Positions 23,615 through 28,444 of a stretch of 64,000 nucleotides of DNA are shown in pieces. The stretch is taken from positions 2,496,001 through 2,560,000 of the forward strand of contig CP182352.1 of NCBI GenBank assembly GCA_048571215.1. The letters run 5' to 3'. Both the position numbers and the translations under genes were made by a program. Origin of the DNA: Halarcobacter sp. GTDB lineage: Bacteria; Campylobacterota; Campylobacteria; Campylobacterales; Arcobacteraceae. Every line of letters begins with the position of its first letter. Positions within the stretch are counted from its first letter, which is position 1. The notes under the pieces are model-generated. The model was not told the origin of the DNA. It did not search any database and saw nothing but the letters and a program-made list of their open reading frames with translations.

Positions 23615-24082
23615 TTAGGTTCTTTTTTTAATCGTAACTATCAATTGATATAAGAAATAAGTTAGTAAAAGTTTGAAAAATAGTTCAATAAAAAAAACAA
23701 ATCCAAATTTTAAATCAAAGAAATGAAAAGGGTTTATATTTTGAAGTAAAAAATTAAGTGTAAAATCATTTGTAACAACAAAATAAAGACCAATAGCACT
23801 AAAAAACATAAACTTCATAATAGTTCTTTTAGTTCCTTGAATAATATTATAAATAAAAAACCAAACATAAGTTGTAACAAGAATAGCAACTAAAGCCTCA
23901 GTATAAATAGAATGGGGTATGTTTTCAATTATTTTTTCACTATTATCTATAAACAAATATTCAATTATAGAAGCTATCAACTCAACAACAATAAGCCAAA
24001 AAAGTAGTAGCTGCCAATTTGTAGTATTTTCAGATGTCACTTTGTCAAAATTATATTTTATTTTTTTTATATTATCTTTCAT
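23615..24082 (-). CDS. Hypothetical membrane protein
   Basis: 155 aa with about 4 hydrophobic segments; RBS GAGG. Confidence 0.65.
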   Translation of the reverse strand: MKDNIKKIKYNFDKVTSENTTNWQLLLFWLIVVELIASIIEYLFIDNSEKIIENIPHSIYTEALVAILVTTYVWFFIYNIIQGTKRTIMKFMFFSAIGLYFVVTNDFTLNFLLQNINPFHFFDLKFGFVFFIELFFKLLLTYFLYQLIVTIKKRT

Positions 24083-24160: not shown

Positions 24161-25039
24161 TTAATTTTTTATTTTTTTATTATATATCTTTATTTTCGTC
24201 TTGTATTTTGACGAATTGAGATAATTAGTTGGGAGACTAGGTAATTTTTTTTCTAAAATATATTTAGAAAGAATTGAACTAAGAATTATTTTTCTAATTT
24301 TATGTTCAATATAAATACCACACTTACAATTTATCATTGAAATGTTATAAAAACGATTCCATGTTTTACCATTATCTTGAGATATTTCTAGTTTGTTTTC
24401 ATTTCCTTTTAAATGTATGTCCTTATATCTCATATTTAATTTTTCAATAATTAACTTACTTGGGGGTAAAATTTTTATTTTTAGAGAAATTTCTCTTAAT
24501 TTTTCTCTAATTAAAATTACATTTCCTATACATTCTATATCCCAATTATCAATATATACATCCCATTTATTATTAATAATTTTTAACGATTTTTTTCCTA
24601 ATGAATTATAAAAAACTCCTGAAATCAATATTCCATTCTCATCTTTTTGTATAGATAAAATTGGCTTCTCATTTATTTGAATTAAGTTTTTACAATTTTT
24701 ATAATGTGTACCAGCTATGCTTATATCTAAATCATTATCTGAAAAATCAAAATATTCATGAGCAAATTTATCTGATAAACATTTTGGTTTTTCATTCGCT
24801 TTAATAACTTTTTCTAAAGATAAAACTCCTCTATTTCTTTTTTGATTACATTGCATACATAATAATGTAATTTCATCTTCACTATGTTCTAAAGCATCTT
24901 TAAATTCAGGATAGAAATGTTCATAATCATACCATGCAAATCCACATATTACACAGCCATAACCACATCTTTTTCTTACATTTCTTTTTATATCTGCTGG
25001 TATATTTCTAGATAAACCATGTTTGTTAATACTAGACAT
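24161..25039 (-). CDS. HNH endonuclease-like protein
   Basis: SR.IP.D.KR.VR.RCGYGCVICG...YEHF.P..H..ITLLC..CN; probable start MSSINK at 25039. Confidence 0.7.
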   Translation of the reverse strand: MSSINKHGLSRNIPADIKRNVRKRCGYGCVICGFAWYDYEHFYPEFKDALEHSEDEITLLCMQCNQKRNRGVLSLEKVIKANEKPKCLSDKFAHEYFDFSDNDLDISIAGTHYKNCKNLIQINEKPILSIQKDENGILISGVFYNSLGKKSLKIINNKWDVYIDNWDIECIGNVILIREKLREISLKIKILPPSKLIIEKLNMRYKDIHLKGNENKLEISQDNGKTWNRFYNISMINCKCGIYIEHKIRKIILSSILSKYILEKKLPSLPTNYLNSSKYKTKIKIYNKKIKN

Positions 25040-25130
25040 AACTTTCCTAAATAAAATTAATAAAATCATTATATTTAAAATATAATTTATTCTCTCTTGA
25101 AGAGTAAGCAGAGAAAAATTTTCTTATGTA

Positions 25131-25359
25131 AATTGAATATCACACCAACTAAAACAAAATGGTACTAAAAAATGCAAAGGTCAATTTTCCCTATTCCCGC
25201 ATTTGAGAAGCCGAGTGTTTATTTATTGTTTCGGAGAAGTTTTGTAACTGTTTGAACAGAACAAATATGCTGGGAGCATATTTTTATGTGAGTTTTACAA
25301 AACAGAAACAATAAATAATAAGCGAGGGTAGTTTCACCTTCGAAACCCGCGGGATAATT
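25131..25359 (+). repeat. Structured repeat element copy A, left part (interrupted by IS110)
   Basis: Aligns with 27023-27256; nested inverted repeats. Confidence 0.85.
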
Positions 25360-25369
25360 CGTATAATAA

Positions 25370-25600
25370 AATATTGGAAATATGATAGTATATTTTCATA
25401 GAGTTCAATAGAAGATGATATATTGTGTGGGTGGTTGAAGCAATTAAAAATAATTTTAATTAGCTTGTAAAGAAGTTCAATAGTTATACTTCAAATTTGA
25501 GTGGCAACAAGAACAGTTTTATAACTAGTTCGTATTTACGAGTCTAAAGTTTGTATGACGAAATATCAGGTAGGAATTTTATTCCTACCCTAACGAACTC
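25370..25600 (+). ncRNA. Putative IS110 bridge RNA
   Basis: TATAAT at 25362; two stem-enclosed internal loops whose unpaired segments match the target (25429-25436, 25469-25475) and the donor junction (25501-25508, 25537-25542); transcript ends approximate. Confidence 0.75.
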
Positions 25601-25626
25601 TTTATATTAATACAAAGGTTCTAGAT

Positions 25627-26610
25627 ATGTATTCTATCGGATTAGATATAAGTAAGTCAACAATTAATATTTATATCCCTATCAATGATTTAGATATTCA
25701 AATATCAAATAATTTGAAATCACTTAAAGGTTTTTATTCTAAGTTAAAAAAACTTTATAAAAAAGATATAGATAAACTTGTATTTGTTTTTGAACCTACA
25801 GCTAATTATTCCTTTTTAATTAAAAAGTTTTGTTCTGAAAAAAGTATACACTGTTTTATTGTTAATCCAAAGAAAAGTGCTAACTTTGCTAAAGCAATTG
25901 GTCAAAGAAATAAAACTGACCTTTTAGATGCTAGAATGTTATCTCAGATGATAGTTACTGCAAGAAAAAATCAGATTAAAATACCCATTATTAATCCTTA
26001 TGCCGAGGAATTAAAAGAGCTTATTACATATTATAAATTTATATCAAAAATTAAAACTCAAAATAAAAATCATTTGGAAGCTTTAGTTTCAAAAGATGCT
26101 TCATCTATTATAATTAAATCATTAAGAAAAGATATAAAATCATTTGAAAAAAAAGAAAAAGATATTCTTATTGAGATAAAAAAAGTTATTGCAAAAGACA
26201 AAAATTTACATAATGCATTTTTAAATATCCAAACTATAAAAGGCATAGGAGAATTATCTTCAATTATATTATTACACCATTTTATACAATATCCTGATAC
26301 AAATCAAAAGCAAATTGTTTCATTAGCTGGATTAGATCCAGTTAGTAGAGATTCTGGTTCATCAATAAAAGGAAAAACAAAAATATCAAAATCTGGTTCA
26401 AAATTATGTAGGGGTACATTATTTATGGCAGTAATGACAGCGATACAATACAATGAAGAATTAAAAATATTTTATAATAGATTAAAAGAGAATGGCAAAC
26501 ATACTACTGTAGCACAAATTGCTGTAATGCGAAAAATGATTGTAATTGCTCACTCATTATATAAAAATAATAATATATATGACCCTAATAAATTTAAAAG
26601 TATATCATAA
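25627..26610 (+). CDS. IS110-family transposase (DEDD recombinase)
   Basis: GLDISK, FEPT, KTDLLDA (DEDD); I.GIG, AGLDP...SGSS, ISK.G...R. Confidence 0.95.
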   Translation: MYSIGLDISKSTINIYIPINDLDIQISNNLKSLKGFYSKLKKLYKKDIDKLVFVFEPTANYSFLIKKFCSEKSIHCFIVNPKKSANFAKAIGQRNKTDLLDARMLSQMIVTARKNQIKIPIINPYAEELKELITYYKFISKIKTQNKNHLEALVSKDASSIIIKSLRKDIKSFEKKEKDILIEIKKVIAKDKNLHNAFLNIQTIKGIGELSSIILLHHFIQYPDTNQKQIVSLAGLDPVSRDSGSSIKGKTKISKSGSKLCRGTLFMAVMTAIQYNEELKIFYNRLKENGKHTTVAQIAVMRKMIVIAHSLYKNNNIYDPNKFKSIS

Positions 26611-26659
26611 ATATTAGATTTAAATATTTTATATTTTATCATTTTTTAAGGTGGCAACT

Positions 26660-26755
26660 TCTTTGCTACTTTCTTTTTCACAAAAGAAAGTCGATAGAAA
26701 TTAAGACGTATAGTAAAAGTTTATTTATACTCAAATATATTAATAATAGTTTTAA
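26660..26755 (+). repeat. Structured repeat element copy A, right part
   Basis: TTTGCTACTTTCTTTT..AAAAGAAAGTCGA..AGACGTA..AAAAGTTTATTTATACTCAAATA matches 27258-27372. Confidence 0.85.
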
Positions 26756-26782
26756 GTGTATGCAATTATCTTGTAGAACAAA

Positions 26783-26990
26783 GTTCTCCGCTTTCTTTAC
26801 TTTTAGTGGTAAAAGTAAAACAAAAGCCACCAGACGGTTGTTGAAGCTAAAGTTCCCTACAGCTTTCTAATTATTTCCTGACCTGCGGGACGCCTTCCTA
26901 AAAGGTACATTCAGTACCTTTTATCCAGTTGAACGGTCCTCGGTCTTCTCCGAAAATAATTAAAAACCTTCCGGCTTCAACAAAGTCTGG
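26783..26990 (-). repeat. Structured repeat element copy C (inverted, diverged)
   Basis: Reverse complement keeps TTG..GAAGCCG, TTCGGAGAAG, AGGGAAC..GCTTC and the terminal TACTTTT/AAAAGTA hairpin in the same nested order. Confidence 0.7.
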
Positions 26991-27022
26991 ACAAATACTC
27001 TAGCCACGAACTTTCTCTTAGT

Positions 27023-27372
27023 AATTGAGTATCACACCAGCTTAAATAAAATGGTAACAAAAAATGCAAAGGTCCTTATCCCACCTTCCCGCATTTGAGA
27101 AGCCGAGTGTTTATTTATCTCTTTTGAAAACAAGTGACTAAACTGTCTGAAGCGTAAAGAAATGTGCTGGGAGCACATTTTAGCAAGTTTTTAGGCACTC
27201 AAAAGGGATGAATAATAAACGAGGGAACCTTCGGCTTCGAAACCTGTGGGATGATTTTTTTGCTACTTTCTTTTTGCCTGCGAGCAGGATTGACATCACA
27301 AAAGAAAGTCGAGAAAGCCAAGACGTACATTAAAAGTTTATTTATACTCAAATATTTTGAAAATAGTTTTAA
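27023..27372 (+). repeat. Structured repeat element copy B (uninterrupted)
   Basis: Homologous to copy A with compensatory stem changes. Confidence 0.85.
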
Positions 27373-27409
27373 TTGGTGAGATACCCAATATATATAAAAT
27401 TTTAAATAT

Positions 27410-27441
27410 AAAAAAAGGAGATAGCAAACTGCTATCTCCTT
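27410..27441 (-). terminator. Intrinsic terminator after secF
   Basis: AAGGAGATAGC-aaact-GCTATCTCCTT followed by a T run on the minus strand. Confidence 0.8.
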
Positions 27442-27475
27442 TGATAGATTAGATGATATTTAGAAACTATGTTTC

Positions 27476-28444
27476 TTATACAGTTCCCTGCTCATACATA
27501 GCTCTTAACTTATCTTTCTCTTTTTGCTTCTTAACTTTCTCAGCCTCTTTAGCTCTAAAATTTGCAATATTAAATTTTAATTGCACTAAAAATGAAGCTG
27601 CAATAAAGATAGATGAGTATGTACCAACGATGATACCTACAAGCATTGTAAAGGCAAAACCGTGGATTATCTCTCCACCGAAGGCAAATAGTGTTATAAC
27701 AACAAAGAATGTTGTCAATGAAGTAAGTGTAGTTCTTGATAAAGTTCTACTTACTGATTCATTTGTTATAAGACTAAGTACTGTTTCTTTTGAGCTTTGT
27801 ATCCCTTCTCTAATTCTATCAAATACGATAATTGTATCGTTTAGAGAGTACCCAAGGATAGTAAGGATTGCTGCTAGGATATCTAGGTTAACCTCTACAC
27901 TAAATAAACTTATTGCACCCATAGCAATAGTAACATCATGTGCTAAAGCTAGGATCGATGCAATGGCAAATCTCCATTCAAACCTAAAAGATACATAAAT
28001 TAGAATAACAATTAAAGAAAGTCCTAATGCCATTAGACCCTTTTCCCTTAACTCTCCACCAACTTTTGGTCCAACCATATCCACTCGTCTTACTTCAAAG
28101 TTTCCAGTTGTATCCAAAATCTTATGCATCTCATCACCAATATCAGTTGCAAGATTTGATGAAGTTCCTGTTACTCTAATAACAACCTCTTCAGGTGTTC
28201 CAAACTCTGTTATTGAAGAACCTTTATAATCTGTTTTATTTAATACTTCTCTTATCTTATCTATTGGTGCTTTTTTGTCATATTTTACTTGTACAATAGT
28301 ACCTCCAGCAAAATCAATACCAAAGTTTAATCCCTTTGTTGTAAGTAAAATAATAGAGGCAATAACCAAAATAGCTGATAGACCTAAAAATGGGATTCTT
28401 TTTCCCATAAAATCATAAATTTTATCGCTTTTAAAAATTTCCAT
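27476..28444 (-). CDS. secF: Protein translocase subunit SecF
   Basis: GIDFAGG, VGPKVG.EL, GYSLNDTIIVFDRIRE; likely start MEIFK at 28444. Confidence 0.97.
   Translation of the reverse strand: MEIFKSDKIYDFMGKRIPFLGLSAILVIASIILLTTKGLNFGIDFAGGTIVQVKYDKKAPIDKIREVLNKTDYKGSSITEFGTPEEVVIRVTGTSSNLATDIGDEMHKILDTTGNFEVRRVDMVGPKVGGELREKGLMALGLSLIVILIYVSFRFEWRFAIASILALAHDVTIAMGAISLFSVEVNLDILAAILTILGYSLNDTIIVFDRIREGIQSSKETVLSLITNESVSRTLSRTTLTSLTTFFVVITLFAFGGEIIHGFAFTMLVGIIVGTYSSIFIAASFLVQLKFNIANFRAKEAEKVKKQKEKDKLRAMYEQGTV

Follow-up and report, generated by a model that had tools for sequence, protein, structure and literature searches.

Background

REP, BIME and REPIN elements are intergenic palindromes made of 20-40-nt hairpins, found together with RAYT transposases, of the Y1 HUH type. 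Integron attC sites are recognised by the polarity of their ends, R''(..AAC)...R'(GTT..), by a length of about 55-150 bp and by their position, one site after each cassette, and they need the integron integrase. Correia, ERIC and BOX elements are transcribed, structured intergenic repeats, which can carry promoters and alter neighbouring transcripts. The repeat family described here was found in a 64,000-nt stretch of the genome of Halarcobacter sp. (GenBank assembly GCA_048571215.1, contig CP182352.1, positions 2,496,001 to 2,560,000), which as a whole is called the window in the following. It is composed of folded "arms", three of which, named A, B and C, lie in the window. That they belong to a real structured repeat family is strongly supported.

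The closest description in print, compared by description only, is that of the "free-floating" motifs ffRNA-1 and ffRNA-2, which include two intergenic regions of Arcobacter sp. L, 736 and 760 nt long (founding loci NC_017192.1/411394-412153 and 619521-620256; Stav 2019, BMC Microbiol 19:66, PMC6429828). In that paper's passages on these motifs, they are reported to have many copies per species, varying gene neighbours and no known function, to come mostly from Beta- and Gammaproteobacteria and other phyla, and to be suspected of being a selfish element (PMC6429828).

Results

Three homologous arms in one array

A sequence-only reading of the window had noticed a nested-hairpin element in three copies. 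This observation was confirmed, within slightly wider limits for each copy, and so was the claim that copy A is split by an insertion sequence (IS). The array is composed as follows.

25117-25359, plus strand: arm A, 5' part, with promoter-like region, leader and core 25196-25356 (P1-P2 clamp and P3 hairpin)
25360-26658, plus strand: IS110-family insertion sequence within arm A, about 1.3 kb, between the core and the P4 hairpin; transposase open reading frame (ORF) 25627-26610, 327 aa
26659-26756, plus strand: arm A, 3' part, with the P4 hairpin CTACTTTCTTTT/AAAAGAAAGTCGA and the 3' tail
26757-27008, minus strand: arm C (C'), core 26830-26990, then two small 3' hairpins; core stems P1 CCAGAC/GTCTGG, P2 TTGTTGAAGCC/GCTTCAACAA and P3 apical AAAAGGTAC-TGAAT-GTACCTTTT
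26991-27087: spacer of 97 bp in the centre, separating the 5' ends of C' and B, with promoter-like boxes and the conserved leader AAAAATGCAAAGGTCCTTATCCCACCTT
27009-27375, plus strand: arm B, complete long form, used as reference copy; core 27088-27253, P4 hairpin 27262-27312, 3' tail ending ..GAAAATAGTTTTAATTG
27276-27296, plus strand: insert of 21 nt, GCCTGCGAGCAGGATTGACAT, a mini-hairpin within the P4 loop of B

The arm core is 158-190 nt long, and a full B arm about 350 nt. The core is closed by P1, a stem of 5-6 bp which reads CCCGCA/TGYGGG in B, as given above in C', and CTGCC/GGCAG, CCAAC/GTTGG and others elsewhere, followed by P2, built around GAAGC/GCTTC. P3 is a hairpin of about 100 nt in three tiers, an outer, a middle and an apical stem, with conserved loops between them: AACTGTTTGAG on the 5' and GAGTTTT on the 3' side; a purine-rich junction, GAGGGAA, is also conserved. 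P4 is the ACTTT..AAAGT hairpin. B-type arms carry an extra conserved 5' leader, AAAAATGCAAA(G/T)GTCCTTATCCC.

The stems were found as they had been quoted: the outer stem of A, TTATTTATTGTTTC/GAAACAATAAATAA, is complementary at 14 of 14 positions, that of B contains two G-T wobbles on the plus strand, and the middle, apical and terminal hairpins are all present. A and B are direct repeats, 83% identical across their first 110 nt, and the 3' part of A shares the direct repeats D2, D7 and D8 with B. A profile of B matches the two parts of A separately (model positions 2-248 for the 5' part, 241-343 for the 3' part), and also matches C on the opposite strand, with an E-value of 2.5e-7 in the window and down to 1e-12 elsewhere; C is therefore a diverged inverted homologue of B. 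As had been noticed, GC content is higher in the arms (33-41%) than in the flanks (22-32%; whole window 28.4%).

The arms had also been described as free of ORFs. This holds for conserved coding frames, while a 50-aa ORF does overlap arm B on the minus strand (27199-27351). Its frame is shifted in 11 of the 22 aligned B copies and about half of the printed translations contain stops, so it is not conserved as a coding sequence. A small peptide in the B leader (ATGCAAAGG...) was rejected as well: its second codon is TAA in 5 of the 22 aligned copies, it lacks a ribosome-binding site, and its length differs out of frame between genera.

Covariation and strand specificity of the fold

The ability of the arms to fold was evaluated against 200 dinucleotide shuffles of each sequence, by using both RNA and DNA parameters. 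The RNA z-scores are -4.6 for B, -5.0 for C on the minus strand and -4.4 for the core of A, compared with -0.7 and 0.0 for two flanking controls. Predicted minimum free energies (MFEs) are lower on the predicted strand than on the other one, both for B (-74.5 vs -53.5 kcal/mol) and for C (-73.4 vs -64.1 kcal/mol). The covariance model of the family, R1, detects each arm of the window solely on its predicted strand (A at 25196-25353, plus, corresponding to genome positions 2521196-2521353; C at 26830-26990, minus; B at 27088-27250, plus). Among aligned copies, G-U pairs outnumber A-C mismatches by 140 to 24 in the B family on the plus strand (22 copies), and by 125 to 17 in the C family on the minus strand (19 copies), an excess of about 6:1 on the predicted strand, seen on opposite strands within a single array.

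Covariation was measured in an alignment, A3, of 26 arms, collected as BLAST and model matches from this genome and 14 others, of several genera. The resulting figures overstate independence, since these sequences also served to derive the structure, and alleles are common to kin: a standard pair is formed in 82.8% of the cells, against 71.5 ± 0.7% after shuffling and 35-51% when the 3' partner is slid along the sequence; pairs changed on both sides are 36 out of 51, against 23.7 (shuffled) and 17-22 (slid); and the covariation score is 0.357, against 0.175 for shuffled alignments (none of 500 reaching 0.357) and at most 0.128 for slid ones. Covariation is nevertheless seen in P1, in P2 and in each of the three tiers of P3. 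Arms from different genera, displayed in full, adopt the same fold when each is folded by itself.

The compensatory mutations originally pointed out are thus real in the sense that 36 of the 51 pairs change on both sides, although many of these changes are swaps among a few shared whole-stem alleles, so that independent events are fewer than the counts suggest. These results show that the fold is kept by covariation across genera, and that folding is strand-specific. The G-U excess, the lower MFEs and the R1 matches on the expected strands all support the interpretation given to the element at the start, that of a strand-specific, single-stranded fold under selection.

A multicopy family with reshuffled stems

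"Triplicated", the term first applied to the element, is correct for the window and an understatement for the genome, where R1 finds 57 arms (E-value 0.001 or lower), each on one strand, the three of the window included. BLAST with B gives 46 matches; a sensitive BLAST yields 53 B and 32 C high-scoring segment pairs in about 15 clusters, and the profile search 47 B and 29 C primary matches. Arms are arranged head-to-head, C' leftward and B rightward, around a spacer of about 97 bp, and such pairs are often tandemly repeated with a period of about 600 bp.

Within the genome, the P3 stems correspond to a handful of whole-stem alleles, each internally complementary and freely combined with the others; the same alleles are found, in mixed combinations, in related species. 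One hybrid arm (genome 2205543-2205763; L040 2540-2765) joins a C-type left half to a B-type right half at the apical hairpin, and looks like a recombination product between inverted arms. It is located just upstream of a phage-type integrase and of an island with CBASS-like genes (DncV-like nucleotidyltransferase, AGS-C). The tyrosine recombinase at this place (genome 2205930-2207030) was considered as an enzyme of the element and discarded, being the phage-type integrase of the CBASS-like island.

Near-identical matches occur in records labelled as Halarcobacter and Arcobacter metagenome-assembled genomes. Within the genus, 13 of the 24 other species match B, and 18 of the 24 match C+B. Across Arcobacteraceae, BLAST detects the family in 50 of 184 genomes and 10 of 22 genera; R1 adds a genus missed by BLAST (7 of 28 genomes, E-value up to 1), and in the genus labelled g18 it finds arms in 10 of 44 genomes. 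The family is patchy within Arcobacteraceae, being present in at least 11 of the 22 genera. Outside Arcobacteraceae, none of 144 Campylobacterota genomes, evenly sampled and searched under stricter filters with 19 candidates scored per genome, contains an arm according to R1, and plasmid and phage collections gave no match. A motif scan, whose pattern was itself taken from the family, shows no spread to other phyla: none of 12 loci on viral contigs passes R1, while 20 of 80 loci fetched from metagenomes do (33 arms), with a GC content of 32-47%, like the arms here.

The spacer between head-to-head arms

The 5' region of B contains two promoter-like boxes, picked up by a promoter scan: TTGAGT (27025-27030) and TAAAAT (27047-27052), separated by 16 nt. 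TTGAGT with the 16-nt spacing recurs in 27 copies; 26 copies have TAAAAT as -10 box, and about 42 fit NAAAAT. On the minus strand of the spacer, TGTGATACT may be taken, on our own reading, as an extended -10-like box, and the spacers of other pairs appear to contain -35/-10-like boxes beside the leader. Spacer length is 92-103 bp in nine out of ten head-to-head pairs and 112 bp in the remaining one; the leader block is found in eight of the ten, from several genera, and is missing from the 112-bp pair. This leader is conserved, non-palindromic, and starts about where transcription would start. No replication-strand bias was detected, as 27 B arms are on the lagging and 20 on the leading strand, the corresponding numbers for C being 10 and 19.

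Genes next to the arms

Of the B arms, 29 are intact at the 3' end. Next to them comes a C arm in 15 cases, an ORF on the same strand in 12, and an ORF on the opposite strand in two, namely the window's B and a cross-hit. A same-strand ORF hence follows 12 of the 14 terminal B arms, in 11 of the 12 cases at 262-341 nt downstream. The interval is a shared leader of about 260 nt, ending TATATATAATGTAT..AATAAGTAG|TT, which resembles the site beside the integron integrase gene intI (..TATATATAATGTATGTTCAATAAATAG|TTGT; ..AATAAATAG|TTGT). The genes beyond this leader are varied accessory genes, among them genes for TIR-Mrr and Mrr proteins, kinases, MarR, a beta-lactamase-fold protein and methyltransferases. 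Beside the single intI itself, two 154-nt attC-like sites (ACAACGGCGGTGCTGA...TCAGCACCGCCGTTAT) are located at genome positions 896503-896680 and 898414-898567; other cassette ends near intI have different, weaker sites, and simple attC finders detected only two sites.

The array of the window is set between a 302-aa ORF on one side and, on the other, the 3' end of an ORF which, from its position, we take to be secF, its neighbours presumably being secD and yajC. B stops 37 nt short of the secF terminator hairpin, and the array is without an attI-like platform. Arms or their remnants lie downstream of secF in 4 of 12 genomes examined, including this one, and in a fifth genome a C arm adjoins secF by its coordinates. 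The composition of the array at this site differs between species. Since arms or remnants are found there in several genomes, the site is either old or favoured. Arm-free relatives (L145-L148, L150, L152) share a different conserved hairpin downstream of secF, ..GGAG(C/T)TTAC-NNNN-GTAA(G/A)TGAC...

The two ORFs adjoining the array, at 24161-25069 (minus strand, 302 aa) and 23615-24082 (minus strand, 155 aa), have no match in Pfam, PADLOC or NCBIfam. By our reading of the translation, CxxC...H...CxxC motifs at the N-terminus of the 302-aa protein resemble an HNH nuclease, and the two may form an uncharacterised accessory or defence pair.

Insertions in the arms

The limits of the element inserted in arm A were read from the sequence and from aligned copies. 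Its transposase matches the NCBIfam model of IS110 RNA-guided transposases, NF033542 (159.9 bits, cut-off 140), and the Pfam domains DEDD_Tnp_IS110 and Transposase_20 are found on identical copies of it. In four copies, B arms are interrupted at one identical point, between ..GGGATAATT and TCTTTGCTAC, by an ORF of equal length (327 aa), the other three insertions being at genome positions 1467506-1468826, 1705041-1706358 and 2826475-2827792; in three of the four ORFs the IS110 Pfam domains are identical. Both its DEDD transposase and its site-specific insertion assign the element in arm A to IS110. A second IS110 transposase, of 323 aa, lies within or next to C or B fragments (genome 383537, 424877, 969584), at points other than the one shared by the four insertions. 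RNA-guided IS110 elements have a preferred target in this repeat family.

Smaller inserts are also found. A mini-hairpin module (GCCTGCAAGCAGGATTACAT) of 20-21 nt is present in seven copies in the genome, all in or adjoining arms: besides the one in the window, at 267701, 963604, 967227, 1464574, 1717522 and 1721355. It occurs in both orientations relative to the arm and at five or more different positions, always directly after TTTT, and has the look of a very small mobile insert; none of the 21 other aligned B copies contains the insert seen in the window's B. A second insert, CTCACAGAGAGTGCAAGCACAAG, 23 nt long, is also present in seven copies (genome 387976, 958066, 971114, 1711671, 1717624, 1803912, 1804526), as well as in related species (L048, L061, L084); TTTT always precedes it, and it is placed within P3 or next to P4 of an arm.

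Candidate partner enzymes

A link with Y1/HUH transposases, suggested by the sequence-only reading, did not hold. The genome has a single Y1/HUH gene, of 177 aa (genome 2560411-2560746; L041 2378-2911), located 411 nt past the end of the window; it stands alone, without neighbouring arms or obvious inverted repeats at its flanks. Y1 genes do not follow the arms across Arcobacteraceae; within the genus, 8 of the 18 arm-bearing genomes have one, vs 2 of the 6 without arms, and the complete genomes G006, G018 and G023 carry arms and no Y1. Mobilisation by RAYT/HUH enzymes was accordingly rejected for want of co-occurrence across genomes; the single Y1 gene is perhaps a RAYT-like gene for another small repeat, such as the mini-hairpin inserts. 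A retron or group II link was rejected too, as there is no reverse transcriptase (RT) in the genome. One intI gene is present (398 bits, cut-off 265), whereas g18 has intI in none of its 44 genomes, 10 of which carry arms. Since neither Y1 nor IntI tracks the arms, and RT is missing from the genome, no dedicated enzyme is apparent.

Comparison with known systems

A search of Rfam 15 by cmscan over 24800-27700, with E-values up to 10, returned seven weak matches, all far below the gathering score, in line with the sequence-only reading, which could assign the element to no named family. Five fall on the terminator hairpin at about 27384-27455, one within the IS110 transposase ORF (26481-26563), and one in arm C (ZNFX1-AS1_2, 26882-26922, 13.1 bits, E-value 5.7). 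The papers listed by a literature search on Arcobacter integrons and attC sites are resistome studies, none of them on the arm family.

As far as the description of the ffRNA motifs goes, their Arcobacter regions are about the size of the two-armed unit, and both families are multicopy with varied neighbours; the arms likewise have 57 copies, no common gene association, and a long stem with conserved internal loops (AACTGTTTGAG, GAGTTTT). The difference is in distribution, the ffRNA motifs being reported mostly from other phyla, whereas R1 finds nothing in Campylobacterota outside Arcobacteraceae.

With REP, BIME and REPIN elements the arms share the state of multicopy intergenic palindromes, the arrays of alternating orientation, the strand-specific hairpins and the role of targets for IS110-family elements. 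They differ in size and complexity, being 160-350 nt long with a multi-helix clamp, against the 20-40 nt of REP hairpins; moreover, they neither co-occur with Y1_Tnp nor flank the single Y1 gene of the genome.

Like attC sites, including those of clusters lacking an integrase (CALIN), the arms are folded, strand-specific repeats between co-oriented accessory genes; in this genome, which has one intI, B arms precede attI-like sites and cassettes. However, the base of P3 reads GTTTAT...ATAAAC, whereas the attC sites beside intI here read AAC...GTT; the arms are 160-350 nt long, compared with 154 nt for those sites; they stand before an attI-like site and not after each cassette; and they are also found in genomes without intI, as in g18.

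Correia, ERIC and BOX elements are similarly modular, hairpin-forming and multicopy, but the arms have no sequence or Rfam match to them, differ in size and are built differently, as two-armed units of clamp plus rod; no terminal inverted repeats with target duplications turned up in the arms. As to features of miniature inverted-repeat transposable elements, a short inverted match, TTGAGT...ACTCAA, is present near the ends of B, while neither a clean empty site nor a duplication was seen at the secF locus among the 12 genomes, nor any parent element.

Discussion

The best guess is that the arms are divergently transcribed, structured non-coding RNAs of a selfish element spread by recombination. 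In full, A, B and C are arms of a multicopy, two-armed structured repeat family, each likely transcribed outward from the shared spacer. The proposal as a whole is held tentatively, at slightly less than an even chance; for the RNA reading overall the chance runs from there to somewhat better than even, according to how its variant with a cis-acting leader (see below) is counted. Each arm transcript would likely be a rod-like non-coding RNA of about 250 nt. Besides the structural and strand signals, the boxes before B, the nearly constant spacer with its leader block, the same-strand ORFs behind terminal B arms and the lack of a replication-strand bias point indirectly to transcription, while the mixed stem alleles and the hybrid arm speak for recombination.

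According to this proposal, the spacer would hold divergent promoters, and the B-type RNA would begin with AAAAATGCAAA(G/T)GTCCTTATCCC as its single-stranded 5' end. The family would probably persist as a selfish, "free-floating" element, whose copies would multiply and swap stem modules through homologous recombination or gene conversion and tandem duplication, without needing their own enzyme. Captured genes would be transcribed by read-through wherever the leader and an attI-like site come after a B arm, as at 12 terminal B arms of the genome, the window's B excluded. The array of the window is one locus of the family, with arm A struck by an IS110 element which targets the repeat.

Several observations weigh against this proposal. 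DNA-parameter folds of the arms are as good as the RNA ones or better, with z-scores from -5.6 to -7.8, and DNA hairpins, too, tolerate G-T wobble better than any other mismatch. A few shared stem alleles, and not many independent events, account for much of the covariation. Promoter-like hexamers are no commoner here than in shuffles of the same AT-rich DNA. No arm ends in a hairpin plus T-run, the T-run preceding P4, so that canonical terminators are lacking, and 57 copies are unusual for a functional RNA gene. The sole RNA run among the 20 matched runs (7% of words) gave contigs of relatives' copies at a depth of 2-8, one of which extends 740 nt upstream of the predicted start, and no transcript of the arms was seen in it; since these contigs are from relatives, at low depth, and one runs so far upstream, this run speaks neither for nor against transcription.

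A rival reading is that the arms act as folded single-stranded DNA, extruded on their own strand in replication, transformation or repair and serving as a binding, priming or recombination site, like REP/BIME, attC or single-strand origins; with two arms on opposite strands, one of them would be exposed at all times. Besides the DNA folds and the missing terminators, strand-specific pairing with tolerated G-T, the multicopy, patchy distribution, the arrays of alternating orientation with their hybrid arms, the clustering in variable regions with integron-type platforms and accessory genes, and the insertion of small hairpin modules into arms all fit such a function. It is nevertheless considered rather unlikely, because the family has no enzyme that accompanies it (Y1/HUH and IntI are uncorrelated with it, and RT is missing), orientation is not biased relative to replication, the stem polarity, GTT...AAC, is the reverse of that of attC, and it is not obvious what the leader block and promoter-like boxes would do in a DNA hairpin.

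It is less probable still, and on balance doubtful, that the B arm is mainly a cis-acting promoter-plus-leader module, giving the genes behind it transcription and perhaps a stabilising or anti-terminating 5' structure, in place of the integrase's promoter region at attI platforms where that gene is missing, with free arrays like that of the window as spare or decayed copies. The same-strand ORFs behind 12 of the 14 terminal B arms, 11 of them at a nearly constant distance, the shared leader ending like the site beside intI, and the promoter-like boxes of B, which point toward the downstream genes, speak for such a module; yet more than half of the B arms with an intact 3' end (15 of 29) are followed by a C arm and not by genes, beyond the terminal B of the window come a terminator and then the 3' end of secF, such a gene context is absent from C arms, and g18 has arms and no intI.

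Finally, functionless arms, that is, selfish palindromic DNA whose complementarity is kept by hairpin-templated repair or gene conversion and whose G-T excess stems from strand-biased deamination, would explain the few whole-stem alleles shared and reshuffled among species, the many truncated and hybrid copies and the parasitism by IS110 elements and mini-inserts, but are very improbable, as the unpaired loops AACTGTTTGAG, GAGTTTT and GAGGGAA and the leader are conserved across genera at about 70% overall identity, P1 covaries with at least five different sequences, and the 6:1 ratio of G-U to A-C, found on opposite strands for the two arm types of one array, makes replication-strand mutation bias alone insufficient.

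The arms thus form a family with a covarying, strand-specific fold, dozens of copies per genome and a presence in at least 11 genera, and yet they are in no RNA or repeat catalogue. If they are RNAs, they would be among the larger unexplained classes of bacterial non-coding RNA; if they are folded DNA, they would enlarge the small set of natural elements acting as single-strand hairpins. In both cases the arms are markers of variable regions, rich in defence genes and cassettes, in these marine bacteria, and they attract RNA-guided IS110 elements of their own. Their position at the head of integrase-less gene-capture sites bears on how integron platforms multiply and are expressed. As a long shot, the arms could represent a new class of self-propagating structured element without a transposase of its own, made of head-to-head rod-like RNAs or folded DNA strands and spread by recombination, which at 12 or more Halarcobacter integron capture sites has replaced the integrase gene as supplier of a promoter. 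If this were true, one distant integrase could serve many enzyme-less platforms driven by the arms.

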